IMG/VR virus record: IMGVR_UViG_3300044513_003764
Location: 1 to 64,000 of that record
Strand: one strand, 5' to 3'
Source: a virus
Taxonomy: Duplodnaviria; Caudoviricetes
DNA length: 64,000 nucleotides
A program made the position numbers and the translations under genes. The notes beneath the pieces were generated by a model. The model did no database searches. It was not told where the DNA came from and worked only from the letters and a program-made list of their open reading frames with translations. This document shows, piece after piece, positions 28,944 through 63,474 of the stretch (its first letter is position 1; each line of letters begins with the position of its first letter).

Positions 28944-31394
28944 TTAGCGTGCTCGGGCGTACTTGAAGGGGTTCTCGGCAAATGCTGCCCAGACGTAAGT
29001 CCCGCCATTTGTATTCATTTCATTTGATGTGCTTCTAGCCTTAAATCCGTTAGATAGAAAATCAGCTACTGCACTACTGCTTTCTAGAGCAGCGGTATTT
29101 GGATATAACTGACCGTCGACAACATTGTAGGTATCACGCGCACTATCTAGAATCATCCAAAAAGCGGTGCTGTCTGTTCTTTTGGTCATTATCCATCTCG
29201 GTCTAAACCCGGTATAAACAAACGTGCCGTCTGCGCTGCCGTTGCCGGTGTGGCTGCCGAAGGCGCTGTAGCCCTTAACTGGGGCGAAGCAGTAAGCAAC
29301 CATTTTTTTACCGCTGCCATTTGTTGCTCCGTGGGCACCAACACTAAAGACACTTGAAGTGGGCGAGGTGCTGTTCCAGTAAAGGGAAGCCGGTGTAGAC
29401 GAGTTGTCTAAATTAAGAAATAACGTATTAGCATTGCCAGTTGTTTTTGTATAAACACCCCACTCAGTCACTTGATCTCTGTTTTTGACAATGATCAACT
29501 CGGGAACAGCTCCCAAGCCGTGGCCAACTGTTGAGGCAGTCAGAGTTCCCGTCCAGCTAACAATCGAGAATCCCGCCGAGGGGTTGGCGCGGACGGTGCT
29601 GGTGATGCTGCCGTCGGTGTTCGGCGCGCTTGATGTACCCGCGTCCCAGTTCCAGGCGACGTATGTTTCAGGGGAAGCATTATATCTAGGATCTAAGTTT
29701 AGAGTAAAACCTGTACTCAAAAAGGATGTCAGACCATTAGATTCGGTTGCTTCAGCAGCATCAGAGTCTGTCGCAAGTTTTACTGTTGCGCCCCTAACCT
29801 GATCGATAAGCCTATGCCCATAGGTGTTAGATCGGGATTTAATCCACACGAAGTCGGGTTCAAAATTTAGACCGACTACATTCTGAACACCACTGTTACC
29901 TGAATAGGTCAGCACGTCGAAGACCGTACTGCCTTTCGTGATCAGCGACGTGTCGAAGTTGGCGGTGCAGAGTGCCTTGAAGCCGCTGGGGGCGCTGTGT
30001 TCGAAGGTGCGTTGGCCGAAGTTGGCTATAGCACTTACAGTTCCGCCCGATGTCCCGTTGCTGAGAGCAGGTGACCAGACTGAAAAGCTGGAAGGTAAGT
30101 TAATCGCCCCCTGCGAGACACCATCTTTGTAGAAAGTAATCGTTTTAGTGCCAGAATCCAAATCGAGTGCGGCACCAATAACCGCCCCAGTACTAGCAGC
30201 TGCGCCGTAACCGGTACTTGCACCGTCTACATATTTTGAACCGTTACCGAGATAATACCCAACAGCTCCACCGCCGAAAAGAGATATGGTGCTCTGAGCA
30301 ACAGAAGCGTCTATGATCCCAACGCCTAAAGCATTTGAGTTTGAAAAACCGTTATGAGTAACTTCCCAGTACCATTTTCCTGATGATTGTGCAAATGTGC
30401 CAGTAATACTGTTTCCTGATCCCGCAGCTAGTGTTACATCAAGATTGCCATTAGAGACTGTATTAGAACCACGCTGACGTAGCGGATTCCAAGTGCAATA
30501 GTTACCAGATAACTCACCGCCATATCCAGTGTCGGTTGTAGTTCCATCAGTAATATAATCAGCAAGACTATCATTACCTGCGCCAGGAGTTACACTAATG
30601 TTGTTGCTATCGTAGTAATTTCCGTTGCCACTGCTATCCGCACCTATCCCAACGTTTGAGCCACTGGTCGTGCTGCTGTTATCTGAAAAGTCAAGGTAAT
30701 AGCCATTGGTTCCGTATGTCACACCAGTGACAGTGATCGGATTCCACACGCCAGTGGTAACGTCAGTCGCACCGAAACTGCTCGGAGTTAAAACTTGACC
30801 ATCGAGGAAATGCACCTCTGCTAGCAAAAAATCTCCATGAAAACGAGTGCCATAAGGATCATTTAGTTCAGCGCCAATCGCAGCCTTCCCTACATCGTTA
30901 ATACTTAACTCATAGTTAAGGGTTGGCCATCCGGGAGAAGCGGTTACGGTAAGAGTCTGAAGTACACCATTAACCCAGATCTTGACCCGATTGCTATCAG
31001 TTGCTTGCGTTGTGTCAACAGCAAGAACGACGTGATACCACGCCGATGGATCTCTAAAAACAGCTTGTGTCCCAACCGAACCAGCGCTATCAACCTTAAA
31101 AACTAGAGTGTCTGCAGTCCCAAGGGCGTTTGAGGCATTATCAGGAAAACATAAATACGCACCCTGATCTGTTCCAGTGCTACCAGAGAAAAGATTGTAA
31201 GGAAAAGCGCCGAGCTTCCCCCTTTTTAACCAGCAAGAAAACGTGAATTTCCTTGTATCACCTTTTGTTGTGACTGTACGGGTTAAAGAAGCGCTGTCGG
31301 CTGAGTTGAACCGTAGCGAATAATTTTCAGCAACGGAAGGGCCAGCAGCGGCAGAAGTTAGAAGTAGAGAATTGGACCCACCAGGAACCGACAT
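28944..31394 (-). CDS. fibre / receptor-binding protein with LamG (ConA-like) and SPRY-like domains, paralog A
   Basis: SLRFNSADS, FRDPSAWYHVV, GKWYWEV, NFGQR; ends FAENPFKYARAR. Confidence 0.8.
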   Translation of the reverse strand: MSVPGGSNSLLLTSAAAGPSVAENYSLRFNSADSASLTRTVTTKGDTRKFTFSCWLKRGKLGAFPYNLFSGSTGTDQGAYLCFPDNASNALGTADTLVFKVDSAGSVGTQAVFRDPSAWYHVVLAVDTTQATDSNRVKIWVNGVLQTLTVTASPGWPTLNYELSINDVGKAAIGAELNDPYGTRFHGDFLLAEVHFLDGQVLTPSSFGATDVTTGVWNPITVTGVTYGTNGYYLDFSDNSSTTSGSNVGIGADSSGNGNYYDSNNISVTPGAGNDSLADYITDGTTTDTGYGGELSGNYCTWNPLRQRGSNTVSNGNLDVTLAAGSGNSITGTFAQSSGKWYWEVTHNGFSNSNALGVGIIDASVAQSTISLFGGGAVGYYLGNGSKYVDGASTGYGAAASTGAVIGAALDLDSGTKTITFYKDGVSQGAINLPSSFSVWSPALSNGTSGGTVSAIANFGQRTFEHSAPSGFKALCTANFDTSLITKGSTVFDVLTYSGNSGVQNVVGLNFEPDFVWIKSRSNTYGHRLIDQVRGATVKLATDSDAAEATESNGLTSFLSTGFTLNLDPRYNASPETYVAWNWDAGTSSAPNTDGSITSTVRANPSAGFSIVSWTGTLTASTVGHGLGAVPELIIVKNRDQVTEWGVYTKTTGNANTLFLNLDNSSTPASLYWNSTSPTSSVFSVGAHGATNGSGKKMVAYCFAPVKGYSAFGSHTGNGSADGTFVYTGFRPRWIMTKRTDSTAFWMILDSARDTYNVVDGQLYPNTAALESSSAVADFLSNGFKARSTSNEMNTNGGTYVWAAFAENPFKYARAR

Positions 31395-31403
31395 CGCTTA
31401 ACC

Positions 31404-32126
31404 TCAAACTCCAGAAACGGCTGCAATCAGATTGCCAACAATAGTGGAAGTACTGGCTGCGTAATAAGCGAGCAAATCAGTCCCGCTCGGGGTCACTGTA
31501 AGAGTAGGAGCAGCTCCATTGGAGAAGGACCAGCCGCCGCTATAAGAAAGTAAACGAGTGCCAGTGCCGTCTTGACGGATATAAATAGCACCGCTCTGAC
31601 CGCCGCTTGGAGACACGCTGGGTGCAAGGGTCGAGTCACCCTGGAGGGTGATGTCGAAGTTATTATTGGCGGAGAAGTCGAGAAGGATTACGCCAGAGCT
31701 TACGGTCGAAGAAACAACTCCGTAAGACTGAGAGTCGACCACGAGAGTTCCGCTGACAATATCGCCAGCTTTAGAGACCTTCGACGTTAGGTCAGTAAGA
31801 GCCGCACTACCAGATGCAAGAGCGGTGGAAGCATCGACAAGGGCTGCGTTACCGGAAGCGAGGGCAGTAGCAGCAGAGGCAAGAGCAGCATTACCGGAAG
31901 CCTGGGCGGAACCGTCAATCGCCAGGGCATCGTCGGCGAAGATCAGGCCGCTGGCAGCAGGTGCAATCGATGCGTTGATGGTTACCGTGCCGCCGGTAAG
32001 GTCGCCGCCGCCGTCTAAACCACTGCCAGCAGCCAGAGTTCCGGCTGTTGCGCCGACAACGGTATCGCCGACCGGAAGTTCGGAAGTAACTCCACTAACT
32101 ACAACTAACGGTCGACGTGTTGCCAT
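31404..32126 (-). CDS. SG-rich fibre adaptor protein, paralog A
   Basis: Three ASGNAAL-type repeats with 14-aa period; RQDGTG.RLLSYSGGW. Confidence 0.75.
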   Translation of the reverse strand: MATRRPLVVVSGVTSELPVGDTVVGATAGTLAAGSGLDGGGDLTGGTVTINASIAPAASGLIFADDALAIDGSAQASGNAALASAATALASGNAALVDASTALASGSAALTDLTSKVSKAGDIVSGTLVVDSQSYGVVSSTVSSGVILLDFSANNNFDITLQGDSTLAPSVSPSGGQSGAIYIRQDGTGTRLLSYSGGWSFSNGAAPTLTVTPSGTDLLAYYAASTSTIVGNLIAAVSGV

Positions 32127-32155: not shown

Positions 32156-32659
32156 TCAGTCGTAGAGGATGACGGGAGGTTCGATCTCGACCTGTAGCTC
32201 AGTATTACTTAAGGCTTGGCCAATATTGACCAAAGCCGCGTAACCACTGGCTGCAGTAACGGTACCGGAAGCAGTACTAAAAGCAGTTAACTGCCCGTCG
32301 TACTGAGACAAGTAGTAGTACTGACCGGGAACGAGCTCGGTAGCAGCAGTGATGTTTGCTGCACCAATAACCGCAGTGTCATCGAGGATGACAGCAACGG
32401 TGGACGAGGTAGAAGCAGCTGCGGCAGTAATACCGATAGCGTTGTACTGAGTGGATGCCACGCCGCTTGCTGCTGAGGCAGGAAGGACGTAGGTTCCACT
32501 GACGTAAACGACCTCACCCTGGATCAGGTTGGCTCCAGCGGTGAAATCTTGAGTGGTCGCAGGCGACGTAGAGACACCGGCACCATTGACGAGCCAGACC
32601 TGCTGACCCGCCGGGGTGAAATCAGTGTACTGTCGGTTGAAAATACCGCGTGTCGTCAT
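32156..32659 (-). CDS. small beta-rich virion protein (DUF2190-like), paralog A
   Basis: FTAGANLIQGEVVYV..A.G; PGQYYYLS. Confidence 0.65.
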   Translation of the reverse strand: MTTRGIFNRQYTDFTPAGQQVWLVNGAGVSTSPATTQDFTAGANLIQGEVVYVSGTYVLPASAASGVASTQYNAIGITAAAASTSSTVAVILDDTAVIGAANITAATELVPGQYYYLSQYDGQLTAFSTASGTVTAASGYAALVNIGQALSNTELQVEIEPPVILYD

Positions 32660-32664
32660 AGCGA

Positions 32665-33174
32665 TCAGACTCCACTAGGGTCAACACCGCTCGGTTCGAC
32701 GTATTGGGGCCAATAGTTGTAGTCAGAGGGAGCACCGCCGGAAGGGGTGATGTAAGTGACGTAATCAGCCAGTCCGGGAGTATCGGTGGTCAGGGACAGC
32801 ATGGTCACCTTGCCTTCGCAGGCGTAACGGATGTCCTGACGCCAAGCCTTAAGGCCGCTGGGTACCACGGTGCCGTTGTCGGCCTCACGAATGACCATCC
32901 AGTCAGTCGGAGCCAGAAAGCCATTTGCCGCTTGACGCGTCGTGTCGGTCCACTGGGTGACCAGCTGACCATGATCCTTAGGGATCAACGTACCGCTAGC
33001 TGTATATCCCCAGTAAAAACGTTGGTCGTAGGAGGGAGGGTCCGGAACCCAAGTAATACCAATGGCTTCACGAGCTGCGGTTGAAGATAACCTCAGCCAA
33101 TTAGCAGGATAAAGGGTACCGTTTGCCTCAAACGGCCTATCGAGGGCTAACGGTTTTCCGTTTAAGACAAACAT
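32665..33174 (-). CDS. tail-fibre assembly/chaperone-like protein
   Basis: YPANWLRLS....REAIGI; FYWG; LAPTDWMVIR; WRQDIR. Confidence 0.65.
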   Translation of the reverse strand: MFVLNGKPLALDRPFEANGTLYPANWLRLSSTAAREAIGITWVPDPPSYDQRFYWGYTASGTLIPKDHGQLVTQWTDTTRQAANGFLAPTDWMVIREADNGTVVPSGLKAWRQDIRYACEGKVTMLSLTTDTPGLADYVTYITPSGGAPSDYNYWPQYVEPSGVDPSGV

Positions 33175-33245: not shown

Positions 33246-36200
33246 CTATCGCGCACGGGTGTACTTGAAGGGGTTTTCGGCGAAAGCTGCCCACACATAA
33301 GTAGTGTTGGCAAAGTTACTAGATTGAAACGCATTACGTATTTTAAATCCGTTTGATACAAAGTCGCCGAACGCGGCGTTCGCATCCTCATCCTGTGTGT
33401 TAGGTCGTAGATAGTCACCTACGACATTGTAAGGATTCCGTTGGGCATCAAGAATGATCCAATCAGTTGTATCAGTAGAGGCTTTGAATAGCAGCCACCG
33501 TGGTCTGAAACCTGTAGACAGGAACGGTCCATCTGAAGACCCGGTCCCAACGTATGAGCCAAAAGCGCTAAAACCATCGACTGGGGCGAAACAAAGGGCC
33601 AAACAATTACCAATGACCTGGCCGTTCGTGCCAACAGTAAACACGTCTGGTGTTGGCTCCGTATTATTCCATCTATCTATACTCTGATTTGCAATATTAT
33701 TTCGTTGCAGAATTAAATACGAAGTAGCAGTTAGGCTCTCATGGTAAACCATCCAGGAAAGCGCACTGTCTCTATTTTTTACAATTATCAGGGCTGGTTT
33801 GGCTCCGAGACCGTGAGCTACAGTCACATTACCTGTTGACCCTCCGTCATAAGTAACGACGGAGCACCCGGCACTGACGTTAGCTCTCACAGTAGATGCA
33901 ACAGTCCCCGCTCCTGGCGTAACACCAGGCGTATAAGTGGTGTTAGACGACCCAACATTCCAAATCCAGCCGACATAGGTGCCGCCGGATTGATTAGTTT
34001 CGAGACCAGAACCTGAAAGATTAAAACCTGTAGAGGTCGTAGATGTAATAACGCTAGTTGTATCCTCTGAAAGTGCTTGGTTCGGATAAAGGGTTTTAGT
34101 TGCCGACGTACCAAACCCACGGAGAGCGTCGTAGAGGACATGATCTGCGAGAGGTAAGTTTCGTCTCTTAATCCAAAGAAGACTCGGATCGAACCCTGTT
34201 CCAGGTAAGGTTATTGTCTGAGCACTTCCTGTTCCCGAATAGGTGACGACATCCATAGCGGTGGATGAGTTTTTAATCAAAGGCTCGACGAGGTTGGCGG
34301 TGCAGAGTGCTTTGAAGCCTTCGGGGGCGGCGTGGGCGAAGGGGCGTTGGCCGAAGTTTAAGTTTGCAGTGCTATATGCACCGCCTCCGAGCTCACCAAC
34401 CTCAGGCGAATAAAGTCCGGCAGACATACCAGAAAATGCTACGCCTTGGCTTGATCCATTCCTGTAAAAGGTTATCGAGAGATTCTGTAAATCAAGAGCA
34501 ACACCAATTACATCGCCGCTGACCCAAGTATCTCCATACGAACTAGTGATGTTGTTATTCATCTTAAGTCCATTATTTCGGTAGATATAACTAGCAGAAC
34601 TTTGGCCAGGGATGCCAACTGTTCGTCCCACACCTAGAGCTCCCCAGTCAGATCCAACTACATTGGAAAAAGTCGCCTCCCAGTACCATTTACCAGAAGA
34701 AACAAAGAAAGTTGAAAGCGCGCCCGATGCTACGCTTGCGCTGCCTACTAAGGTGAGATTGCCGTTGGATATTGTTGTTTGATTGTTGGCCAGCGGGTTG
34801 AGCGTGCAATAGTTCCCGCTGATTTGACCGCCCAACCCGGTGTCACCGCTAGAAGCACCGGATGTGGGGTGATCTGTGAGGGTATCAGTGTTCCCATTAG
34901 AAACATATGTGTTAGGACCAACCACGTACTTGCCTACACCACCGAGCCAGGTATTAGCTACTTCAGTTAGTTTGATCGTATTTGTGGTCGAATCAACCTC
35001 AAACACGTTACCTGTACCAGCCGCCTTGGTTACTTCAGCAGTTTGAGTACTGCTGGTATCCCATGACCCGCCTGTACCGCTCAGTAAGAGCTGATTAGCG
35101 CTAGGTGCGCTTCCAAGAACAGTACCATTAGGAATCAGATCAGCGTCTTTAAGAATCTGACCGTTTACACGGATTGCGTGCCAACGCGGGAAATTACTAC
35201 TGCCACCGTAAAACTCTCGAACCTGAATGCTAGTTAGGTTGCCACTAAATGGAAGGAGAGCTGTTACGTCGTTCCATCCAGCTCCGGTATTGGTAACCCA
35301 ACCTGATCCATTGACAGAAACTTCGCTGCTGGTATTACCTACCTCCAAATACACTTCTAAACGTTGAACGTTTGAAATTGAAGTGTTATGCGTAATAATG
35401 TTTGTAGTATTACTACCGAACAGTGTTGCATAACCACTTGTGCTGCCGTTATACAAGCTGGTAGGGTTAGTAACAGTAGCAGATGAGCCTCCAGAGGTTC
35501 CGGTAAGATTAGAGCTATAGGTAGGACCGGCAGAAGCGTTGTCCTGGTAGATAGTATCTCCTGCAGCAAAACTTGAAAGGTTAGTAGAACCAGTCAGATC
35601 TAGCTTGGTGTCACCCCTTACAGCCTTAACGCCATCAATGTAATAGCCTGACACATATTGATTAGCATTAGCAGCATAAGCATCTACAAGACCTAACAAA
35701 GTAGGAGTAGAAAAGGTGTGCGTTACTAGCCACGCTGAACCTGCCCATCCACTAATTGGCTTTAGGACCGCAGTAGCTGTTGAGCTTACGTTAACTCCGT
35801 TAACATTTAACCTGCTTCCATCAACATTCCAACCGCTGCTATTATTGGACATGGTGGCCCAGACACCAATGCTAGTGACATACAGGCCCAAACTTGTAAA
35901 GTCTGCAGATGCAGTCGAGAGACCTGGACTCCAAGGCGGAACACTGTTGTATTCAGGTCTAAAAGCGTTAGCAATTGTGTTGAGATTGCCAGTGAAAGTG
36001 GCATCGTTCTGATAATCTAGGCGCGTAAAACCAGAGATAGTATCTGAAGATAGTGTCGTACCGCTATCTTGTGAAACAGCGTCAGAAGGGTAAATCTTAC
36101 TAAGATCTTGATCTGAAGCTAACGTAAGGACGGTCTTAGCAGGAAGAATAGTCCAGTCGTTTGCGGCAACGTTTTGACCAGGATTCGCGTAAGCGTAGTA

Positions 36201-37358
36201 TTGATAAGCGGTTGTTGAGGTTATTCTCCTACCTCTGTTTGTCTCGTAAGCAATAAAGTTCCAAGTGGCCCCACCATTATTTGATCCGTATAAAACGGCT
36301 GCCTGAGCACTAATAAGTGATGGGTATCCAATGGTTACTGCACTAGCAGTATCTAACTCAAAATAAAGCCACGCGTCAGATCCCCAGTTAATAACTGAAG
36401 GATCGGAAGGGTTAAACGTTGAACCTACATTAATAACCTGATCGCCCATATTAATGGCCGATGCCCAGCTATTATTTGGCGCACCAGCGTTAGATCCGCC
36501 GCCTCTACGGTTTTTAAAGGTAGAAACCGCCTGGGATTCAATAGTAACTGTGCTAATAGTATCTGTGTTAGCAGCAGTAACACCTAAAGGCGTAAAGTTT
36601 ACCGCATCGAAATTATTACCCTGTCCACTACTATCGTAACCAAGAGACTCAATGGAACCTGTGTTACTGAAGGTAAGACGATAGCCGTTAGTGCCGTAGG
36701 TCAAACCAGAAAGGTCCGAGAGCGGATTCCATACGCCAGTGGTGGGGTCAAACTCACCGAAGTCGGTGGGGGCTAGCGCTTGACCGTCGATGAAGTTGAT
36801 GTCGGCTAGGTAAGCGGATAAATAGACTCCCCGAAAAGTACCGTAAGTGCCAATGCCGTGTTCAACAGTCGTATTGATTAAGCTGTTAAGACTCGGAGAC
36901 GGGTTTGTCCTTGTGCTGAATTGGTCTACTTCTACACCGTTAATGTAAATACGATGCCTAGAATCTGCAGTACCGTTGCTGGAGTCCCAGACAACAACCA
37001 TGTGCGCCCAGGCTGACGGATCTCGAAAACCTTGGTCCGTAATCAAACGAGCTGTATAGGATCCACTTTGAATCTGAGCAAAATCAAGCGTATTGCCACT
37101 TAGATAACGTAAAAACTGACCATTAGTCGCTCCCGCGTCTAAGTAACCAAACAAAATCTCGTTGACATCTAGCTTGGATTTCTTTACCCAAAAGCTAAGT
37201 GTCCACGTATTAAGGTCACCCTCATTTGCCGGGAAACGGCTAAGGTACGCGCTATCAGCTGCGTTAAACCGCAGCGATTTTTTGATTTCGGAGCCACCGC
37301 CGCCAGCAGCAGCTCCAGCAGCGCCAAAAAAGGGAGCCGACGCAGAACCTAATGCCAT
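33246..37358 (-). CDS. large fibre / receptor-binding protein with LamG and SPRY-like domains, paralog B
   Basis: Same N- and C-terminal domains as 28944..31394 plus a ~550-aa central insert; ends FAENPFKYTRAR. Confidence 0.8.
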   Translation of the reverse strand: MALGSASAPFFGAAGAAAGGGGSEIKKSLRFNAADSAYLSRFPANEGDLNTWTLSFWVKKSKLDVNEILFGYLDAGATNGQFLRYLSGNTLDFAQIQSGSYTARLITDQGFRDPSAWAHMVVVWDSSNGTADSRHRIYINGVEVDQFSTRTNPSPSLNSLINTTVEHGIGTYGTFRGVYLSAYLADINFIDGQALAPTDFGEFDPTTGVWNPLSDLSGLTYGTNGYRLTFSNTGSIESLGYDSSGQGNNFDAVNFTPLGVTAANTDTISTVTIESQAVSTFKNRRGGGSNAGAPNNSWASAINMGDQVINVGSTFNPSDPSVINWGSDAWLYFELDTASAVTIGYPSLISAQAAVLYGSNNGGATWNFIAYETNRGRRITSTTAYQYYAYANPGQNVAANDWTILPAKTVLTLASDQDLSKIYPSDAVSQDSGTTLSSDTISGFTRLDYQNDATFTGNLNTIANAFRPEYNSVPPWSPGLSTASADFTSLGLYVTSIGVWATMSNNSSGWNVDGSRLNVNGVNVSSTATAVLKPISGWAGSAWLVTHTFSTPTLLGLVDAYAANANQYVSGYYIDGVKAVRGDTKLDLTGSTNLSSFAAGDTIYQDNASAGPTYSSNLTGTSGGSSATVTNPTSLYNGSTSGYATLFGSNTTNIITHNTSISNVQRLEVYLEVGNTSSEVSVNGSGWVTNTGAGWNDVTALLPFSGNLTSIQVREFYGGSSNFPRWHAIRVNGQILKDADLIPNGTVLGSAPSANQLLLSGTGGSWDTSSTQTAEVTKAAGTGNVFEVDSTTNTIKLTEVANTWLGGVGKYVVGPNTYVSNGNTDTLTDHPTSGASSGDTGLGGQISGNYCTLNPLANNQTTISNGNLTLVGSASVASGALSTFFVSSGKWYWEATFSNVVGSDWGALGVGRTVGIPGQSSASYIYRNNGLKMNNNITSSYGDTWVSGDVIGVALDLQNLSITFYRNGSSQGVAFSGMSAGLYSPEVGELGGGAYSTANLNFGQRPFAHAAPEGFKALCTANLVEPLIKNSSTAMDVVTYSGTGSAQTITLPGTGFDPSLLWIKRRNLPLADHVLYDALRGFGTSATKTLYPNQALSEDTTSVITSTTSTGFNLSGSGLETNQSGGTYVGWIWNVGSSNTTYTPGVTPGAGTVASTVRANVSAGCSVVTYDGGSTGNVTVAHGLGAKPALIIVKNRDSALSWMVYHESLTATSYLILQRNNIANQSIDRWNNTEPTPDVFTVGTNGQVIGNCLALCFAPVDGFSAFGSYVGTGSSDGPFLSTGFRPRWLLFKASTDTTDWIILDAQRNPYNVVGDYLRPNTQDEDANAAFGDFVSNGFKIRNAFQSSNFANTTYVWAAFAENPFKYTRAR

Positions 37359-37361: not shown

Positions 37362-38030
37362 TCAAACTCCCTGGAAGTTTGCGGTAAGAATAGCTAAGAA
37401 GCCTGAAGAGGATGCACAATAATAAGTAAGTGCATCGGTAGATCCAGCAGCGGTCGAAAGGGTAGGCGCCGAACCGCCAGTAAACTGCCAACCACCGCTG
37501 TAACTGAGTAATCGACTGCCTGTACCGTCTTGGCGAACAACGATCTGGCCAGTCTGGCCGCCACTGGCGCTGGTAGGAGCCGCCAGAGTGTTGTTAGCGT
37601 CGTTAAGGGTGATATCGAAGTTATTACCGCTGCCGAAATCGAGGAAGATGACGCCAGAGACAGTCGAGGTCGAGATCGTACCGATCGACTGAGACTGAAC
37701 GGTTACGGGACCCGAGATAGGGCCACCGGTCTTGTCATACTTACCGCTAAGGTCAGTTAAAGCTGCGTTACCAGAAGCTTGAGCGGTAGCAGCATCGACA
37801 AGAGCAGCGTTACCGGAAGCGAGGGCGGCAGAGGCTTCAACTAAAGCTGCGTTACCGGAAGCTAAAGCTTCGTGCGCGAGCTCGCCGCTAGCAGAAGCAG
37901 CATAACGAACATCGAGTACGCCAACGTCAACACGCTTATTTAGTGTCCCGGAGGCTTGAATTACAGGGAAGTAGTCGCCACTGGCCAGCGTTGTAATCGC
38001 TGAAAATTGCGATATTTTTTGGCTGGCCAT
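37362..38030 (-). CDS. SG-rich fibre adaptor protein, paralog B
   Basis: Three ASGNAAL repeats; RQDGTGSRLLSYSGGW. Confidence 0.75.
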   Translation of the reverse strand: MASQKISQFSAITTLASGDYFPVIQASGTLNKRVDVGVLDVRYAASASGELAHEALASGNAALVEASAALASGNAALVDAATAQASGNAALTDLSGKYDKTGGPISGPVTVQSQSIGTISTSTVSGVIFLDFGSGNNFDITLNDANNTLAAPTSASGGQTGQIVVRQDGTGSRLLSYSGGWQFTGGSAPTLSTAAGSTDALTYYCASSSGFLAILTANFQGV

Positions 38031-38032: not shown

Positions 38033-38509
38033 TTACGCAGTCTCTAAATCAATTGTAGACCCATCCTCCTGAAGCATAGCATCTAGGATTGCTCCGACGC
38101 TCGACTCCAACAAGAAGACAGACGTTGGGTTAGTAACAAAGAGCGGTCTAGAGGTTTCAACCTCAAGTTTTGTCGAGGTAATCGCTCGACCGACAATAGA
38201 AAGGTAGGCACCCTCGTAAGCAGTAAGGGCCAAGCCCGACGCCCACGCGGAATAATCAACGTTTACCCCAGAAGCTAGTAGGGATAGATATCTATACTCA
38301 CCAGGGTTATATCCACTGCCTCCGCTGTAAATAGCATCAGCATTAACTCGAATTAAAGCGCCTGCAGATCCTGCATCAAGAGCGACGCCGACAACAGACG
38401 CTGTATCAAGCTCGAGAGCGTTCGCTTTAAAAAGTAGACCAGAGGAGTTGAGGGCTACCGCATCCCCAGCTGAGATTGATTCTCCCGCCTTAAAAGAATT
38501 AATAGCCAT
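38033..38509 (-). CDS. small beta-rich virion protein (DUF2190-like), paralog B
   Basis: FKAGESISAGDAVAL..VVGVA; PGEYRYLS. Confidence 0.65.
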   Translation of the reverse strand: MAINSFKAGESISAGDAVALNSSGLLFKANALELDTASVVGVALDAGSAGALIRVNADAIYSGGSGYNPGEYRYLSLLASGVNVDYSAWASGLALTAYEGAYLSIVGRAITSTKLEVETSRPLFVTNPTSVFLLESSVGAILDAMLQEDGSTIDLETA

Positions 38510-38533: not shown

Positions 38534-38656
38534 CTAACCTTTTCCTTGGCCACGGGATTTTTTACGTCCGTGACTGGGAAGGCTGTGACGCCCTTGACCC
38601 TGACGGGTCTTCTTGGGCTTGGACTCGATCTGCTGAACGTTCTTGGGTTTCGACAT
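38534..38656 (-). CDS. 40-aa basic peptide
   Basis: MSKPKNVQQIESKPKKTRQGQGRHSLPSHGRKKSRGQGKG; TAATG coupling. Confidence 0.65.
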   Translation of the reverse strand: MSKPKNVQQIESKPKKTRQGQGRHSLPSHGRKKSRGQGKG

Positions 38657-39372
38657 TAGTCGACGTTGTTAACGGTCAGGATGATACTCGGAATGTCGGG
38701 GTGTGCTGGGACTGCGTGCCCGCTCGCAGCAAGAGCGACAACATCTAAGTCCTCAGAGTGCCAATAGAGTTCTGCAAACTCGTTAGTGTCCATAGAAAGC
38801 AAGAAGTTCCACGCGGCAACATTACGGTCCGAGGATCCCTCGACAACGATAGTAGTCGCGCTCCAAGGCACACCTACACCGTTCTTGCTCAACCAAATAT
38901 CTACGTCTTCCTTATTAGCACTACTCTTCTCTAGTTGTGCGGAAAACTGGATGTTGTACACGCCAGAGTTAGCGACCTGGATCATCGATCCCGACACGAC
39001 CGCAACGCCACGGGAATCAACAGTGGTGTTGTACGTGAATGCGTTACCGGAGGCTGCTGAAGGGTTTGTCTGTGTCGTAGTGTCAAAAGCGTTTAAGAAA
39101 TACCGCTGTGTCGCTGGTGTCCCAGCAGCGCCGCTAGGACCAACAGCACCGCTAGGTCCAACAGCACCGCTAGGTCCGATAGCGCCGCTAGGTCCAATAG
39201 CACCACTGGGTCCGGTAGGACCAGGAATGCCGTTGTTGATCAGAACAAGAGTACCGTCGTCCCTAGTCGTATATAAGTAACCAGACGGAGTATCGAGTAC
39301 GAGCTCCCCAACGGCGGGATCACCCGTAACTACGCCAGATGCAGTTCGCTTGAGACGCTGATAGTTAGCCAT
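38656..39372 (-). CDS. collagen-repeat fibre protein
   Basis: N-terminal QRLKR..GEL..DT anchor; 13 Gly-X-Y triplets; C-terminal beta domain. Confidence 0.8.
   Translation of the reverse strand: MANYQRLKRTASGVVTGDPAVGELVLDTPSGYLYTTRDDGTLVLINNGIPGPTGPSGAIGPSGAIGPSGAVGPSGAVGPSGAAGTPATQRYFLNAFDTTTQTNPSAASGNAFTYNTTVDSRGVAVVSGSMIQVANSGVYNIQFSAQLEKSSANKEDVDIWLSKNGVGVPWSATTIVVEGSSDRNVAAWNFLLSMDTNEFAELYWHSEDLDVVALAASGHAVPAHPDIPSIILTVNNVD
39115..39231 (-). repeat. collagen-like Gly-X-Y repeat including five 18-bp GPSGA(I/V/A) units
   Basis: Direct reading of the sequence. Confidence 0.9.
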
Positions 39373-40277
39373 CAGTAAACACCTCCGTCAATGTCGATAT
39401 CCACCCAGGATGAGCCATCCCAGACCTTGAGACGGTTAGTAGAGGTATCGAACCAACCAGCACCCTGAGTACTCGTCGCAGCAGGTGCCGCAGGTCCGTA
39501 AGCAAAGCTTCGAGAAGGTCCGGTCTCGTACCAGCCCGAAGTGGTTGCGTCGTATACGAACAACGAACCCATGAGGGTGTTGAACCAGATCGAACCGTCG
39601 CGAGGAGGTGCATTCTCGCCGGTACCCGAAGGAGCGATCTCCGACTTAAGTGCGATAGCTTCTGCGTTCGTCTGATACCACGCAGGCAACTCAATACCGT
39701 TACCCGAGGCGTACACAAACAGTCGACCTTCGTTGGTGTCAAACCAGAGGTCGCCCGCAGAGTAGTTTGTGCCGGGTGCACCAGAAACGGTTACAGAAGC
39801 ACCGCCGCCACCGCCACCAGCAGAGGTTCCGCTGATGAGCGCGAGAGAACCGCTGTAGTTGACGGAAACAGAGCCCTCACCCTCTGCATACAGGTTGAAC
39901 TTAGTACCGCCGTCAGATAAGTAGATACCGGAACCAGCGGTATAGAGAATCCCGGAAGCGGACGTAACAGTCGCGTTTATGACTGTGTAGCTACCGGAAG
40001 CGCTGAAGTAGATACCACTTCCAGCTGCGATATCTGCACCTCCGCCTCCAGCAGATATCCCGCTAATACTCGTATTTAAATCTTCGAGAGCCCTTACTAC
40101 ACCTTCGAAATTCCAGGGATACCCGTAAGGGCAACGAGAGTAGCTTGTAGTTCCCACGCCGCTTACGGTTGCAATCAGTTCTTCGATAACGGTGACGATA
40201 CCTTCGAAGCTCTCAGAGTGCAGAGCCCGAGGAAACGTGCCGTGAGTTGGACAAGGAGGCGAATTGATTTCAGGCAT
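39372..40277 (-). CDS. SG-rich fibre protein
   Basis: Repeated GDLWFDT/GSIWFNT/GWFDT units; terminal DGGVY. Confidence 0.75.
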   Translation of the reverse strand: MPEINSPPCPTHGTFPRALHSESFEGIVTVIEELIATVSGVGTTSYSRCPYGYPWNFEGVVRALEDLNTSISGISAGGGGADIAAGSGIYFSASGSYTVINATVTSASGILYTAGSGIYLSDGGTKFNLYAEGEGSVSVNYSGSLALISGTSAGGGGGGASVTVSGAPGTNYSAGDLWFDTNEGRLFVYASGNGIELPAWYQTNAEAIALKSEIAPSGTGENAPPRDGSIWFNTLMGSLFVYDATTSGWYETGPSRSFAYGPAAPAATSTQGAGWFDTSTNRLKVWDGSSWVDIDIDGGVY

Positions 40278-54528: not shown

Positions 54529-55398
54529 TCAGGCAGGAGAGGTCGAGGTGTAGATCTGAGACTCGATGACACCATCGGGCTGCAGAGCGACGTCCTGACG
54601 CTCGGGGGGCTCGTCGGGAACGATCCAGCAAACTTCGCAGATAGCGAGTGCTTTGTCTTCGCCGGAGAGCTTGCCAGCGGCGGCACGAGGATCGTACACA
54701 CCAGAACCCTGGAAGATACCAGAGGCGGCTTGGCTGCTGGAAGCGAACAGTTTCCACTGAGTCTCGGCACCCAGGGCAGACAGGCTGCTGGAGTCGATGA
54801 TGTTGGTGGAAGCGGTGCTGCCGTTAGCAATGCGGCTGGTGGCGCCGGTAACAGAGGTACCGAACTGACCAGACACAACAGTGCCGTCGACTTTCAGACC
54901 TTGGCCCACAGCGGGGATCAGGGTCAGGGTGGGGGTGGCGGAACCACCGGCAACGCCGGAGCTCACCAGATCACCACCGTCAACACGCAGAGAAGCGCGA
55001 TACACGTAAGCACCGGCAGGAGCCTTGATGCCGTCGGTGATATCGGCCCGGACATCCTTGTGGAAGTCGGGGGAAGGAACGATAACCTCGCCGTTCAGGA
55101 AAGGTTGCTCGGCGCTGTTCTGACCCGAGCCATAAGGACGGGTGTAGTAGGACAGCTGGTTGGTGGAACCCAGAGCTTGGAAGCTCAGGTCCACATAACC
55201 GACGGCCTGCTGGGCAATCCAGCCGGGACGGAAGACCACGCCCACGGGGCCACCAACGGGCTGGTTGGTGTAGCTCGTCTGAACGCCATTGGCGTTCTCG
55301 AACTGCATGGTTTTTTCTTCGTGCCAGTAACGAAGAACGTTGGTGTAGTTGCCAGGATAAATCTTGGCAACGTGCAACTGGTTAGAGTTGATCGCCAT
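54529..55398 (-). CDS. putative capsid decoration / minor capsid protein
   Basis: Directly after the capsid gene with GGAGG RBS and the same strong codon bias. Confidence 0.6.
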   Translation of the reverse strand: MAINSNQLHVAKIYPGNYTNVLRYWHEEKTMQFENANGVQTSYTNQPVGGPVGVVFRPGWIAQQAVGYVDLSFQALGSTNQLSYYTRPYGSGQNSAEQPFLNGEVIVPSPDFHKDVRADITDGIKAPAGAYVYRASLRVDGGDLVSSGVAGGSATPTLTLIPAVGQGLKVDGTVVSGQFGTSVTGATSRIANGSTASTNIIDSSSLSALGAETQWKLFASSSQAASGIFQGSGVYDPRAAAGKLSGEDKALAICEVCWIVPDEPPERQDVALQPDGVIESQIYTSTSPA

Positions 55399-55412: not shown

Positions 55413-56528
55413 TCAAGCGTCGAAAGAGTAACCAACGGTGACGAAGTCAGCGTTCAGAAGTTCGAAACCTGCGTACAGGCTCCAAATCATCATGATGAAA
55501 CGGCTGAAGTCGTCGTTGTTGTTCAGGAGAACCTGAGCATTGTTGCCACCGATGCCAACGCCGGTCGACTGAGGACCGAAGAAGATACCAACTGCTGCGT
55601 TGTAGTCAGAGGTGGTGCCACCGATGGTTGCGCTTTGGGTTTGGGTAGGCATGTTGGTGCTTTCGAAGAAGCGCACGCCTTCAAACACGAAGCCGGTGGG
55701 CATAATCGGTTCGCCAGCCACGAAGGTGGCTTGACCGAAGCCCTGACCCATGTACAGCGCAGCGTTGGGCTGCATGCCGGACATGAGGGGATTGATTTGA
55801 CCGTTGCCAGGATAACGAGCAACTTCACGGAAGTCGCTGTTCTGACGCAGGTGCATCAGGAAGGTGGGATCGCAAACGCAGCGATAGAAACCATCCTGGA
55901 AGGTAGGAGTGTTCCGCTTGCGCAGGCTCTTCACCACGCGCAGGAGGTCATCCTTAACGTCGAACTTAGCTTGCTCGGCGTTGGTGTAGGTCAGGGCGCC
56001 GGTTGCCAGATCGCCGGGGAAGTAGTAACCACCCTGGGAATCGGAAGCTTGGCCCTTAGAAACGGCTTTCAGGAGTTCGTTGATGAACACCCGATCACGC
56101 CACCGACGGTAGTCATCCAGCAGAGTCAGGCTGCCGATGGACTGGTGGAAGGTGGTGAGGTTGCCGGTATCCAGCAGGAGACGCTGAGCAGTGATCAGGG
56201 TCTCACGAGCAATCTTGAAGGTGCTCGGCTGGGTGGGATCGGACGGATCAGCAGGACCGGTGTACTCCTTAAGAGTCACCAGGACCTTGTCCTTGACGAT
56301 ATTGCGGCTGTTAGCAGTACCGATGGTCTGCTCAGCAGTACGTTCGCGAGATTCTTTGGAGCCGGGGTTACCGAAGAAGCGGTAACGGTCGAGCTGCACA
56401 GTCTGGCCGGGTTGCTTCGAGAAATCGTGAACAACCACAGGCTCCGCAGCCATCTCAACGATGTATGCGGGGTGCGGACGGTACAGTTCGGCACCAAGAA
56501 TCTTCGGAAAATCATTATCGATGAACAT
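55413..56528 (-). CDS. major capsid protein (N4-gp56-like, HK97 fold)
   Basis: 371 aa; GQTVQLDRY, EYTGP, FEGVRFFES, FG.Q..G.G; strong codon bias; synteny with portal and scaffold. Confidence 0.85.
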   Translation of the reverse strand: MFIDNDFPKILGAELYRPHPAYIVEMAAEPVVVHDFSKQPGQTVQLDRYRFFGNPGSKESRERTAEQTIGTANSRNIVKDKVLVTLKEYTGPADPSDPTQPSTFKIARETLITAQRLLLDTGNLTTFHQSIGSLTLLDDYRRWRDRVFINELLKAVSKGQASDSQGGYYFPGDLATGALTYTNAEQAKFDVKDDLLRVVKSLRKRNTPTFQDGFYRCVCDPTFLMHLRQNSDFREVARYPGNGQINPLMSGMQPNAALYMGQGFGQATFVAGEPIMPTGFVFEGVRFFESTNMPTQTQSATIGGTTSDYNAAVGIFFGPQSTGVGIGGNNAQVLLNNNDDFSRFIMMIWSLYAGFELLNADFVTVGYSFDA

Positions 56529-56612: not shown

Positions 56613-57410
56613 TTAAATTTTAGTGCCGGGGCTAAAAGTTCTCACCATATTGCGTACACCTTCACCAAGCACACCATATGTTGAACCGTAATTTGGAACG
56701 TAACGCGTGGACTTACCTCGATAACTAAAACGCGTTACCGAACTCATCTGCCCAGGCGCGGTGCTTCGAACTGCTTCTGCGTATGTGCGGCAGTAAGCAG
56801 GGTAGTTGTACTCCCACGCTGCTCTGGATCCGCTTGTGTCGTTAGTCGGGTTAGTGAGCATCGGTGTTCTGACCCGCTCAAACGATCCCGGACCCCCTGT
56901 GATGCCTCCTTCTGTACTCGTATTGTTTGAAGGAGTTTGAAACGGTGAGTAGTTCTGATTGTCAGGAACAGAGGCTCCGTACCACGTATAAGCGCCAAAA
57001 TCCCTCAAACCCGGTTGAGGGCCTAGTGCGGTTTGAACGTTGCTGTTAGCAGTGTGGTACAGACCCTGAGCACGGAAGCCCAGGTAACTATCTAACAAGC
57101 CCGACGCGTGTGGATTTACGTTGTTGTAATCAGTCCAGTAGCCAGAAAGTGCTGCCGGAACAGATCTCCACTCCGTATTTAAATATCCACTACTGTTTGG
57201 AGGACCAACTGGGATATTCCCGAAGTCAGCACCTTCAAGATTCACGCCCACCCAAGTTTGCTGTACTCCACTCGGATACACATATCCGCTGGAAACAACT
57301 ACATAGGTGTTACGAATATCTAAGTCGTCACCAGTTCGCTGAGGACCTGACTGAACGGGGTGATACAGGTTTTTATCGTATTTCCAATTAGTTAGAGGCG
57401 TGTAGACCAT
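56613..57410 (-). CDS. hypothetical virion protein (S/G/Y/T-rich)
   Basis: ORF track; late -10 motif upstream. Confidence 0.7.
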   Translation of the reverse strand: MVYTPLTNWKYDKNLYHPVQSGPQRTGDDLDIRNTYVVVSSGYVYPSGVQQTWVGVNLEGADFGNIPVGPPNSSGYLNTEWRSVPAALSGYWTDYNNVNPHASGLLDSYLGFRAQGLYHTANSNVQTALGPQPGLRDFGAYTWYGASVPDNQNYSPFQTPSNNTSTEGGITGGPGSFERVRTPMLTNPTNDTSGSRAAWEYNYPAYCRTYAEAVRSTAPGQMSSVTRFSYRGKSTRYVPNYGSTYGVLGEGVRNMVRTFSPGTKI

Positions 57411-60700: not shown

Positions 60701-60859
60701 TTACTTAGAAGACTTCATCTCTTTGTGCTTACGGGCTTTATCCCGAGCACGGGTGCGCTTTTCAGAGTCGCCGCGAAGTTCCTCACCGCTAGGAGCTTTG
60801 GTTTCTTCCTGCTTTTCTTTAAAACGCGCTAAGACTTCAGCGGGCATTTTATCGGACAT
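60701..60859 (-). CDS. 52-aa charged peptide
   Basis: MSDKMPAEVLARFKEKQEE...KHKEMKSSK. Confidence 0.6.
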   Translation of the reverse strand: MSDKMPAEVLARFKEKQEETKAPSGEELRGDSEKRTRARDKARKHKEMKSSK

Positions 60860-61664
60860 CGGGCAACAGATAATTCCTTACTCTTTCCAGTTTAACCAGT
60901 TCTTTCGGGAGATTTTCAACGGGATACGAAGTCAGCAAATGATCCTCCCGACCAAGCATGTCGGTATTGCCTTCTTCAGGCTCAAACTCATCACACAACT
61001 TCTGTACCTCGGGACGGTCCCAGATGTAATACTCGGCAATCGACCTGAGCTTCAGCTTGCGCTTATCGGAGTCGCCCATCCAAGAGAAGTGCCAGCCCGC
61101 GTCGCGATCACCGAAATAACGGTTTGCTTGTGTGGCGCGCATAGAGGACAAAGTCCCAAAATCTTTTAGTTGTCCCACGGTGCTGACGACTCCACATCGC
61201 CAGTCAAAAAGCTCGCCTTCAGGCGAAACGAGCTGACGATCCGCACGACCATAGTGCATAGACATGCTTAATCGGACAACATTTTCCTTCTCTTCCTCAA
61301 CGACCCTTAGGAGCTCCTGAAACTTATCTGGGTTAGCGATCTCGTCGCAGTCCGAACAGATAAAAACTGTGTCGTCAGGCATCATGTGTAGCCCGACTCC
61401 CAGAGCGTCGCGTTGACCACGCTCACGAATCCAAGGGTCAGGAGCTTCCTCGGCAGAAGGCAGCTCCACATGCAGAACCTGAATCTTCTCTTCGGGGAGA
61501 CCAAGCTCTCTAATGGTCTCTAAGCACGTGAATTCTTTCTCCTCACCTCTATGCGTACGGTTAGCGTCCGTAATCAGAAAACCATCTACAGAGTCCTCAA
61601 GCGTACGAATCCGCAGTTCGAGGATCTCTCGCTCATTGAAGTAGGGGAAGCAATCTATGAGCAC
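60849..61664 (-). CDS. glycosyltransferase family 17-like (GnT-III/MGAT3-like)
   Basis: IDCFPYFNE.EILELRI..L...VD.F.I......H.G..K; ERGQRDAL; SDCDEI; AGWHFSWMG. Confidence 0.85.
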   Translation of the reverse strand: MLIDCFPYFNEREILELRIRTLEDSVDGFLITDANRTHRGEEKEFTCLETIRELGLPEEKIQVLHVELPSAEEAPDPWIRERGQRDALGVGLHMMPDDTVFICSDCDEIANPDKFQELLRVVEEEKENVVRLSMSMHYGRADRQLVSPEGELFDWRCGVVSTVGQLKDFGTLSSMRATQANRYFGDRDAGWHFSWMGDSDKRKLKLRSIAEYYIWDRPEVQKLCDEFEPEEGNTDMLGREDHLLTSYPVENLPKELVKLERVRNYLLPDVR

Positions 61665-61989: not shown

Positions 61990-62261
61990 CAGAAGAGAAC
62001 GTTCGCTGAGGTGATCGTCCCACCACTAATCGCAGTGCAGGCCAGATTAACCAAGGACGGCGCCGTGGCCGTAAACTGCAAATACTGTCCCGGACTATCA
62101 GAAAGCTCTAGATAGACAGTGCTACTAGAGGAAGCATTCAGGTAAAGCCCCCGACAAGTGGGGAACCTAGCCTCGCCATCAGAAGGCTGCCAGGAAAGTC
62201 CGCTTCCGTAAGGGAGCACCGAAGTCTGTCCAAAGACAGAACCAAAAGCGCGAATATCCAT
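61989..62261 (-). CDS. small beta-rich virion protein, possibly head-spike base (Rcc01079-like)
   Basis: FPTCRGLYL....TVYLEL.D...LVNLACTAI.GGT. Confidence 0.45.
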   Translation of the reverse strand: MDIRAFGSVFGQTSVLPYGSGLSWQPSDGEARFPTCRGLYLNASSSSTVYLELSDSPGQYLQFTATAPSLVNLACTAISGGTITSANVLF

Positions 62262-62284: not shown

Positions 62285-62575
62285 TTAACTCTCCTCCTCA
62301 GAAATTTCGATTAATTTCTGCAGATACCACGCGCATTTCTTTAGGTCTTCGACACCATTTTTAAATTCGGTACGCCAAAGGTATTTCAGGCAGGCTCCCC
62401 GACAGTAAGAACGTAAGCCCTCCTTACCTAAGGCAGACTCAAGCGCATCAATACACTCAATGGAACCCTGCGTGTAGTGTGCAGGATGATCTACAGGATC
62501 ACTAAAGAGCATAGGTTTGCTGGGTGAAAGGTCGTCGATCTCATTAAACAAGAATCTATCTTCCTCGAAGAGCAT
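62285..62575 (-). CDS. DUF3310 / SaV-like (T7 gp1.7 nucleotide-kinase-related) protein
   Basis: DPVDHPAHYTQG.IECIDA..YCRG..LKYLWR...KNG.EDL.K..WY. Confidence 0.9.
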   Translation of the reverse strand: MLFEEDRFLFNEIDDLSPSKPMLFSDPVDHPAHYTQGSIECIDALESALGKEGLRSYCRGACLKYLWRTEFKNGVEDLKKCAWYLQKLIEISEEES

Positions 62576-63474
62576 CAGGTAACAAAAATCTCAGAGATGT
62601 CTAGCAGATTGTCTGTTTTCGTGCTGAGCTCTTCGCTGTACTTCGTATCGAGATGCTCCAGGAGTCCGCAAGGAGCGATCTGCACAGTGCCGTTCGAGCT
62701 TACGAGCGGAACCACCCTGCGATGTTCCTGTCCCGAACGAAGGTTTTCAAAAATTGTCCCCATCGAGCTTCGATCGGCAATTGGCCAGCATCTGTGCTTA
62801 GTTAACTCGTAGCTCTCCAATGGATCAAAACTCTTTGAATTGACGTAGTCTTCTGCCATCTGCTGATCCAGAATCATCAGCCCGGCATAAGGATTACCTA
62901 AAGAGGCAAAACCTATAAATTCCGAAGACGGAGTTAAGTAAGTCTCGACTGTGTAAGGTCGATCACCCCAAACCGAAGGAGTCGGATTATTTAAGTTCCA
63001 CCTACGGTAGTTATCAAACGGGACGTACTTTTCGTTAAACGACTCGAAACGGCAGAAACCTGGCTCGAGGTTTAAAGGTTTTAAGCGATCCTTCCAACTA
63101 AACCAATAGAAGAAATTCTCACTCGTCAGGAGCATGTCGTTCTCGCTATAGAGGTAGAAGTCATACGCCCTCGCTTCCACGGCTAACTTCAAGAGCTCCT
63201 TATGACTCCAAGTGAGCGAGAATCCTTTGTATTCCTCGGGAGCAATAACAACGTCAATAACTAATCTCTTTACGTTACTAAGTATTAAGTTAAGTAAAGT
63301 GTCTTTGTCCTCTCTGTGCTCATAGTCAATAAATATAAACACCTCTTTAGTTCCAGGCAGCTCCTCGTAGCCACGAAGAACCTCGAGCAGGGGGTCAAAC
63401 CGAGCCAGAGGGTTGTGCGCCGTGATGGCGATAAAATACTTGGAGGAGTATAGAGAAGCGTTAGAACAAGTCAT
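62575..63474 (-). CDS. putative GT-A fold glycosyltransferase-like protein
   Basis: N-terminal IAITAH strand; YDFYLYSENDML acidic motif; NPYAG..IL. Confidence 0.5.
   Translation of the reverse strand: MTCSNASLYSSKYFIAITAHNPLARFDPLLEVLRGYEELPGTKEVFIFIDYEHREDKDTLLNLILSNVKRLVIDVVIAPEEYKGFSLTWSHKELLKLAVEARAYDFYLYSENDMLLTSENFFYWFSWKDRLKPLNLEPGFCRFESFNEKYVPFDNYRRWNLNNPTPSVWGDRPYTVETYLTPSSEFIGFASLGNPYAGLMILDQQMAEDYVNSKSFDPLESYELTKHRCWPIADRSSMGTIFENLRSGQEHRRVVPLVSSNGTVQIAPCGLLEHLDTKYSEELSTKTDNLLDISEIFVT

Follow-up and report, generated by a model that had tools for sequence, protein, structure and literature searches.

The question raised by the locus considered here is why the small tail-fibre proteins of a cyanophage are so rich in the dipeptide serine–glycine (SG), and whether this is connected to the glycosyltransferase (GT) genes encoded in the same virion module. 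The locus lies in a 64,000-nucleotide (nt) stretch of DNA, hereafter the window, which comprises the first 64 kb of the 78,450-bp phage record IMGVR_UViG_3300044513_003764 from IMG/VR and belongs to a cyanophage resembling Synechococcus phage S-EIVl. An earlier note on this DNA had proposed that SG is a selected sequon for O-glycosylation of the virion by the phage's own GTs. The results presented here indicate that SG is indeed selected in the appendage proteins, though independently of the two GT genes on which that proposal was built. At a probability of roughly 45%, we read SG as a fold-linked structural corner or packing motif of putatively trimeric appendage proteins in the S-EIVl-like lineage, which takes a broader form, [S/T]-G (serine or threonine before glycine), in the sister subclade that includes S-EIVl itself.

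All SG counts given in the earlier note were reproduced exactly, including those for the DNA polymerase (4), the primase-helicase (4) and the 371-amino-acid (aa) major capsid protein (1). Enrichment was assessed in seven small fibre open reading frames (ORFs), encoding proteins of 301, 238, 158, 222, 169, 167 and 240 aa, against shuffles made protein by protein with serine and glycine content kept. The excess reached p <= 0.0003 in the 222-, 240-, 238- and 169-aa ORFs and p < 0.03 in the 301-, 158- and 167-aa ORFs, and when all seven were pooled, 63 SG were found versus 21.0 expected (z 9.1), making SG the most deviant of the 400 dipeptides. The reversed dipeptide, GS, occurred at expectation (20 versus 21, or 0.95-fold), showing that the excess is directional, while values of 0.61-fold for TG, 1.13 for NG and 1.20 for DG show that it is specific to serine in the window's subclade. 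The remainder of the window was close to expectation (93 SG versus 80.5).

It could be argued that composition, repeats, paralogy or DNA constraint produce this excess, with no selection on the dipeptide as such. Serine and glycine each make up 10–15% of these proteins, and some of the counts do come from internal repeats and from the paralogous 222- and 240-aa proteins, in which 7 of 26 SG occupy shared positions. However, when the 240-aa paralogue was left out and internal repeats were collapsed, 43 SG remained versus 15.1 expected (2.84-fold, P 4e-9 against composition), so the claimed excess did not vanish once serine and glycine content had been corrected for. Together with the z score, the GS counts and the conserved SG serines described below, this already refutes the by-product explanation, to which we attach almost no probability. 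The SG pairs are encoded by 18 different hexamers, which places the signal at the level of protein rather than DNA. Two simpler causes were considered separately and ruled out, namely a composition artefact (by the shuffles and by GS at expectation) and a DNA-level motif (by the diversity of hexamers).

A control background was provided by ORFs called in 50 other phage loci, of which 133 had fibre-like composition. In these 133, SG was 1.39-fold, GS 1.21-fold, NG 1.30-fold and DG 1.43-fold, with TG, NG and DG in the range 1.1–1.4, and 13 of 497 control ORFs reached P < 0.01 for SG. Against the 1.39-fold background of fibre-like controls, the de-duplicated excess remained significant (P 2e-5). 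The earlier description of SG as flooding the virion fibre proteins holds for the seven small fibre ORFs but not for the two giant fibres, as the 816-aa protein is at 1.07-fold and the 1370-aa protein at 1.43-fold with GS equally high. The narrow context reported ahead of SG is a real bias, with alanine and proline each approximately threefold above composition. Alanine, proline or valine precedes 44 of the 63 SG sites, glycine precedes 5, and acidic neighbours are rare; the acidic flanks and G-S-G context of the proteoglycan acceptor, to which the motif had been likened, are thus not seen.

Serines that precede glycine are also conserved in preference to other serines. The 222-aa protein has more than 1000 homologues, and 9 of its 13 SG are near-invariant in 120 of these, down to 56% identity; conservation in this family was 0.78 for SG serines versus 0.40 for other serines (p 0.004). 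Across 10 appendage orthogroups, built from the window genome and five near-complete relatives (G001–G005), relative conservation was +0.14 for SG serines versus -0.16 for other serines (p 6e-11). The same orthogroups showed no such effect for threonine, alanine, asparagine, aspartate or proline preceding glycine, and the effect for SG serines was seen neither in 39 orthogroups from outside the appendage set of these genomes (p 0.58) nor in 13 control families. Among individual proteins, SG serines were conserved at 0.88 versus 0.37 for other serines in five orthologues of the 301-aa fibre-like protein, and were no better conserved than others in the 169-aa protein (0.48 versus 0.40). The idea that all phage fibres behave in this way was ruled out by the control families, together with the 1.39-fold background.

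Codon usage distinguishes the same serines. AGY codons encode 34 of the 63 SG serines (54%) versus 23 of 108 other serines (21%) in the seven small fibre ORFs (p 2e-5), with no difference in the remainder of the genome (40% versus 36%); this otherwise unexplained bias is in keeping with long purifying selection on serine identity. Distant homologues of the tip domain, from Caulobacter phage S2B, cyanophages PSS2 and SS120-1, Synechococcus phage S-CBP2 and Roseobacter phage CRP-811, lack these serines, and SG in the fibres of these phages is near expectation. The statistics, the conservation and the absence of the serines from distant homologues together show that serine before glycine has been selected in the appendage proteins of this lineage specifically, and on this point, that SG is a selected motif and not an effect of composition, the earlier note is borne out.

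The settings in which SG occurs are structurally diverse and often repetitive. An AlphaFold model of the 222-aa protein, with a mean predicted local distance difference test score (pLDDT) of 68.5, places an N-terminal coil or anchor ahead of a helix at residues 49–95 and a beta-sandwich at residues 119–217. The helix (pLDDT approximately 70–84) has a leucine every seven residues in sequence, a heptad spacing. Three SG fall inside this predicted helix in an A-x-A-S-G-N-A-A-L repeat with a period of 14, one further SG is at the helix N-cap and one at the helix end, and four of the five SG in the tip domain map to loops or to a hairpin turn. If the register follows the leucine spacing, the glycine of each helical SG would adjoin or enter the core. 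In one relative the A-x-A-S-G-N repeat has grown to 15 units, giving 21 SG in 348 aa, while a relative of the protein encoded at 47913 carries A-S-G-A-I-V five times. The 238-aa protein contains a run of approximately 13 Gly-X-Y triplets, five of them Gly-Pro-Ser (in Gly-Pro-Ser-Gly-Ala-x units); it scores 24.7 bits against PF01391, under the 27.2 cut-off, and several PHROG tail-fibre or collagen-like families match. No Pfam family was found for the small fibre proteins, and none of the solved structures proved related in sequence to the 222-aa family, while a Foldseek search with the 222-aa model returned only weak matches to phage spikes and tailspikes (best E 2.7e-3).

The GT genes lie at the other end of the virion module, between terminase and portal, as the earlier note had claimed. 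The product of 60849–61664 is a predicted GT17-like glycosyltransferase, based on its match to PF04724 (CAZy family GT17; E 8.6e-14, 51.8 bits with a cut-off of 26, profile positions 77–255 of 348). A scan of viral contigs with its profile for distant loci recovered close relatives only, 78–100% identical. The 301-aa ORF at 62575–63480 matched nothing in Pfam, NCBIfam or PHROG. Its model has a Rossmann-like N-terminal half (pLDDT 82–96 over residues 10–135) and a poorly modelled C-terminal half, with an invariant E113-N114-D115 after the strand at residues 108–113, E-N-D standing in place of the canonical D-x-D. All 55 PDB matches listed by Foldseek at E <= 1e-3 are glycosyltransferases or GT-A-like nucleotide-sugar enzymes (template modelling (TM) scores 0.2–0.4), and the protein is accordingly predicted to have a GT-A fold. 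Both genes are co-oriented and overlapping with terL and the portal gene, the terminase and GT-A-like genes sharing 4 nt.

Further genes for sugar metabolism flank the terminase just beyond the window. The region at 65049–74272 of the genome encodes a GT4 enzyme (65049–66221; PF00534, 36.7 bits), a weak GH130-like beta-propeller, a borderline GT2 (23.1 bits, cut-off 23.3) and a Methyltransf_24 methyltransferase. The closest solved relative of the GT4 is chlorovirus B736L, with a full-length alignment (E 1.7e-19); B736L is a putative mannosyltransferase whose acceptor is unknown, and the capsid protein is perhaps not its target (PMC9614988). The head modules of Synechococcus phage S-CBS4 and Microcystis phage Mae-JY09 also contain GT4 homologues, that of S-CBS4 adjoining a methyltransferase gene and a gene homologous to the GT2-like gene of the window phage. 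Gordonia phage GMA2 has a GT17-like gene after its terminase and putative portal genes, whereas that of cyanomyovirus S-H68 lies within a nucleotide-sugar and polysaccharide cluster. The placement of the GT genes would suit a late, virion-related use. The same 65049–74272 region also gave a weak match to the minor capsid protein P4 of Phycodnaviridae (E 7e-4).

The distribution of these genes separates the SG pattern from the two GTs on which the sequon proposal relied. All five complete relatives from the window's subclade carry both the GT17-like and the GT-A-like gene. In contrast, S-EIVl encodes neither, none of 80 portal-centred loci from its subclade (61 of which include terL) carries either, and five complete genomes of that subclade gave no match to profiles of the two genes; the GT2-like and GH130-like genes are also absent from the S-EIVl-subclade genomes, leaving GT4, which occurs in 12 of 12 complete genomes across both subclades, as the only sugar-enzyme gene of the set. 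The SG excess is nonetheless retained there, at 2.44-fold in the family of the protein adjoining the capsid gene (54529–55398; n=36) and 2.85-fold in the family of the 50021 protein (n=19). Between G000 and S-EIVl orthologues, two SG columns are common to one of two aligned pairs (29% identity) and none to the other.

Also enriched in the S-EIVl subclade is a 607-aa fibre, with 46 SG versus 10.6 expected (39 versus 9.6 in another genome). This fibre has 81 [S/T]-G, spaced mostly by 5, 3, 8 or 10 residues; serine or threonine precedes 57 of approximately 67 aligned glycines, and the two are exchanged at 10 of those sites. It weakly matches the triple beta-helix of Mu gp45 (E 0.1), with which its glycines line up. 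As the pattern is kept in relatives that lack the GT17-like and GT-A-like genes, it is independent of those two genes. The earlier note had named the same enrichment in relatives without the GTs as a refuting outcome; the flood of SG or [S/T]-G in such relatives is equal or stronger (2.4–2.9-fold; 46 versus 10.6), and the tie of the dipeptide to these two enzymes is not supported. In phages of other lineages, namely S-CBS4, Mae-JY09 and Tetrasphaera phage TJE1 (GT4 homologues) and GMA2 (GT17-like), few small tail proteins are SG-rich, at a rate not above controls, and T7 has none. Two such small proteins are encoded just after the tape-measure or distal tail genes of GT4-carrying cyanosiphoviruses, in Mae-JY09 (20757–21413; 9 SG versus 2.8) and S-CBS4 (30632–31039; 8 versus 2.0), and in the former threonine follows seven of the nine SG (x-S-G-T).

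From the statistics, conservation and repeat context of SG, and from the absence of the two GT genes in the sister subclade, we infer a structural role for both residues. Glycine would fill a tight corner or close-packing position, one per repeat unit, and the small uncharged hydroxyl residue ahead of it may cap the corner and be held by purifying selection. Such an arrangement could serve several architectures, including the 14-residue alanine-rich helical repeat, the Gly-Pro-Ser collagen run (where SG would merely be a Y residue and the next glycine), the A-S-G-x-x-x repeats and the beta-turns of the tip domain, and in the sister subclade [S/T]-G may occupy the corners of a long beta-solenoid-like fibre. 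With a glycine corner and a serine cap, the excess would follow folds and repeat expansion and not the GT17-like and GT-A-like genes. The GT17-like, GT-A-like, GT4, GT2-like, GH130-like and methyltransferase genes would, on this account, probably make a glycan late in infection, with the SG serines not acting as its acceptor signal. The corner motif accounts for the invariance of 9 of 13 SG positions and their fixed register within repeats, for the lack of an excess in the giant SPRY/DUF7483 fibres, whose folds are different, and for the independence from GT17 and GT-A; it also agrees with the control-level SG of other-lineage phages whose head modules contain a GT4 or GT17 homologue.

Several observations weigh against a purely structural motif. 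The demands of a fold explain the glycine and not the serine, and TG, NG and DG, which are equally good turn formers, are not enriched. The helical serines would be at outward heptad position c or f under either register of the modelled helix, yet they are invariant. Even in variable columns, SG is 1.78-fold enriched among serines, with TG and NG at approximately 0.6. The equivalent positions hold L-P, K-P, N-T or A-A in distant tip-domain homologues, and the aligned glycines of Mu gp45 follow threonine or lysine. Moreover, at least 10 non-homologous orthogroups share SG, which suggests a common reader, and a lineage-wide GT4 with its set of sugar enzymes in the head-packaging operon fits modification of the virion.

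These points would be met if SG or [S/T]-G marked the acceptor sites for O-glycosylation of the virion by phage-encoded enzymes, started by the lineage-wide GT4, an enzyme of the GT-B type. GT4 would place the first sugar on exposed corner and repeat serines in the cytoplasm, while extension and decoration of the glycan in the window's subclade would fall to the GT17-like, GT-A-like and GT2-like enzymes, together with the methyltransferase. A serine-specific, directional excess across several non-homologous appendage families, selective conservation of SG serines in appendage proteins only, persistence of the excess in variable columns and a serine that is specific to the lineage, with glycine or other residues at the site in distant homologues, are all consistent with a sequon. 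So too are the occurrence of GT4 in every complete genome, its kinship to B736L, the GT4 homologues in the head modules of S-CBS4 and Mae-JY09, the GT17-like gene near the GMA2 terminase and the overlap of the window's GT genes with terL and portal. However, as GT4 is a trait of the whole lineage, finding it together with SG adds no independent evidence. GT4 homologues occur without SG beyond the control rate in S-CBS4, Mae-JY09 and TJE1, the pattern persists where the GT17-like and GT-A-like genes are missing, and neither the capsid protein nor the largest and presumably most exposed fibres are enriched. Most sites are invariant, where a shield would permit turnover, and glycans of the host envelope offer an alternative target for the GTs, as the polysaccharide cluster around the S-H68 gene illustrates. 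A sequon is therefore regarded here as possible though doubtful. The corner and acceptor readings fit the data about equally well, and they are not mutually exclusive, as structural corners can be acceptors.

SG might instead be read by some other factor, such as a host enzyme, another modification of serine (phosphorylation or acylation), or a chaperone or partner docking on A/P-S-G corners. The recurrence of one signature in many non-homologous appendage proteins with selectively conserved serines, its independence from GT17 and GT-A and the preference for alanine or proline ahead of SG would all agree with this. However, no candidate kinase, acyltransferase or chaperone emerged when the window and the remainder of the genome were scanned with Pfam, and we know of no precedent for such a reading, which we consider improbable.

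Known systems offer partial parallels to either role of the serine. Autotransporter heptosyltransferases such as Aah and TibC are cytoplasmic and modify serines at the short inter-strand loops of the beta-helix repeats of AIDA-I and TibA, so that a structural corner doubles as an acceptor, just as the glycosylation account proposes for the window phage. They differ in belonging to another enzyme family (no heptosyltransferase homologue turned up here, though homology was not tested) and in having bacterial adhesins as substrates. Similarly, the serines of dipeptide-type repeats in serine-rich repeat and Ser-Asp adhesins are O-glycosylated by soluble GT-B enzymes (GtfA/GtfB and SdgA/SdgB) and extended by other GTs. 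In contrast to the window's SG sites, which are found in folded repeats and turns, the repeats of the serine-rich adhesins are disordered and far denser, and the phage GT4 is instead nearest to B736L. For Che8, Corndog and Myrna, three mycobacteriophages with glycosylated virions, we know of no dipeptide sequon.

These mycobacteriophages are the closest functional precedent, and one that favours a sequon. Phage-encoded GTs glycosylate the virions of Che8, Corndog and Myrna according to Freeman et al. 2023, as cited in PMC12363180 and PMC11256854, with the capsid and tail-tube proteins as the targets. Like them, the window phage has its own GT genes, here inside the head-packaging operon, and outward-facing virion proteins as proposed targets. 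In those phages, however, the glycans were shown chemically on capsid and tail-tube subunits, whereas the capsid protein of the window phage is nearly without SG. Chlorovirus NY-2A B736L and its PBCV-1 counterpart A546L, the nearest solved kin of the phage GT4, are GT-B enzymes and putative mannosyltransferases from a virus that glycosylates its own capsid, but that virus is a eukaryotic giant virus. Proteoglycan xylosylation has the Ser-Gly acceptor in common with the proposed sequon, and XT1 (PDB 6EJ7–6EJE) is among the structural matches of the 301-aa GT-A-like ORF; this match reflects a generic GT-A likeness, as it ranks sixth at a TM score of approximately 0.3 and a root-mean-square deviation of approximately 15 A, beside many other GT-A enzymes. 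On the structural side, phage spikes and fibres built as a triple-stranded beta-helix, such as Mu gp45 (PDB 3VTN/3VTO), and collagen-like fibres of phages also have glycines at regular corners, and Gly-X-Y repeats automatically give Y-Gly, although known fibres of these two kinds need no serine before the glycine.

A literature search found no cyanophage virion-glycosylation sequon, no cyanophage virion glycosylation and no study of a phage GT17. Were the sequon true, no sequon for phage self-glycosylation would have been defined before it, and cyanophages would gain their first described case of virion glycosylation. An abundant freshwater and marine cyanophage lineage would then cover its fibres with a glycan of its own making, at a motif that is simple to read and from which sites could be predicted in sequences. 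This would have consequences for host recognition, for how stable and sticky the particles are in water and for how widely virion glycosylation is spread beyond actinobacteriophages. If the serines are not glycosylated, the result still defines a Ser-Gly corner that is strongly conserved in phage fibres, together with a warning that a dipeptide excess beside GT genes is by itself no evidence of a sequon. As S-EIVl is a cultured phage, the question of glycosylation is directly testable.

The affiliation of the window phage rests on its major capsid protein, for which S-EIVl was the sole match among 50,697 phage records, and on further genes, among them those for portal, terminase, primase and thymidylate synthase, that match S-EIVl at 22–54% identity. 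Both subclades are common in the metagenomes of IMG/VR, where 405 stretches carry a relative of the GT17-like gene and at least 597 a relative of the S-EIVl-type portal. The virion module is a minus-strand block running from 63.5 kb down to 28.9 kb, in the order terminase, GT-A-like gene, DUF3310 gene, two small ORFs, GT17-like gene, portal, head genes, capsid, tail genes and a fibre cluster at 40.3–28.9 kb (Table 1).

Table 1 Features of the virion module, listed in descending window coordinates; SG counts are given with the number expected from composition.
Position (strand)	Feature	Length (aa)	SG observed	SG expected	Remarks
63477..64000 (-)	Large terminase gene, 3' part				PF17289; 51% identity to S-EIVl TerL; runs past window end
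62575..63480 (-)	Predicted GT-A-fold protein	301			Invariant E-N-D after beta-strand 108–113
62285..62575 (-)	DUF3310 protein between the two GT genes				PF11753, E 8e-17
60849..61664 (-)	Predicted GT17-like glycosyltransferase	271			PF04724
58431..60668 (-)	Portal protein				42% identity to S-EIVl 767-aa protein after terminase
56613..57410 (-)	Head-module protein	265	7	2.9	p 0.016
55413..56528 (-)	Major capsid protein	371	1	1.9	69% identity to S-EIVl
54529..55398 (-)	Protein adjoining capsid gene	289	6	3.3	
50021..50578 (-)	Virion-module protein	185	4	2.3	Modest SG excess
47913..48470 (-)	Minor-tail-like protein	185			5 SG in last ~53 residues, in short A-S-G-x repeats; PHROG 356 (minor tail protein)
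39372..40277 (-)	Fibre-like protein	301	12	5.9	Shuffle p 0.005; weak PHROG tail-fibre matches
38656..39372 (-)	Collagen-like fibre protein	238	11	2.6	5 SG from Gly-Pro-Ser triplets
38033..38509 (-)	Small appendage protein	158	5	2.0	
37362..38030 (-)	Fibre protein	222	13	3.6	PHROG 4757, 9017, 7760 (tail fiber)
33246..37358 (-)	Giant fibre, SPRY + DUF7483	1370	25	17.4	Not SG-enriched; 27 GS
32665..33174 (-)	SG-rich protein of fibre cluster	169	5	0.9	C-terminus P-S-G-V-D-P-S-G-V
32156..32659 (-)	Small appendage protein	167	4	1.3	
31404..32126 (-)	Paralogue of 222-aa fibre protein	240	13	4.7	
28944..31394 (-)	Giant fibre, SPRY + DUF7483	816	12	11.2	Not SG-enriched

Part of the fibre cluster, 28944–38509, resembles a tandem duplication of a module. 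Signs of this are the 222- and 240-aa paralogues (112 identical columns), the shared SPRY and DUF7483 domains of the 1370- and 816-aa proteins, and the 158- and 167-aa proteins, which hold equivalent positions in the cluster and are weakly alike (32 identical columns). The C-terminus A-Q-G-G-F-Y of the 50021–50578 protein is kept in every orthologue of both subclades, including that of S-EIVl, which is 34% identical overall.

A 378-aa open frame (55398–56534, plus strand) lies antisense over the entire capsid gene (55413–56528, minus strand) and, having been chosen by a greedy longest-ORF caller, is almost certainly a shadow ORF. In the S-EIVl record, the deposited annotation of 60784–62010 consists of two 'hypothetical protein' coding sequences, one on the opposite strand; tblastn locates an intact S-EIVl capsid gene, 69% identical to that of the window, at 60859–61986 under those two coding sequences. 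A ferritin/Dps-like gene (47378–47920, plus strand) is inserted on the opposite strand of the tail module and shows 45% identity to the S-EIVl 'DNA-binding ferritin-like protein'. Finally, a 411-aa protein (25456–26691, minus strand) in which a phage lysozyme domain is fused to a Peptidase_C39-like cysteine protease domain is probably a two-domain endolysin.

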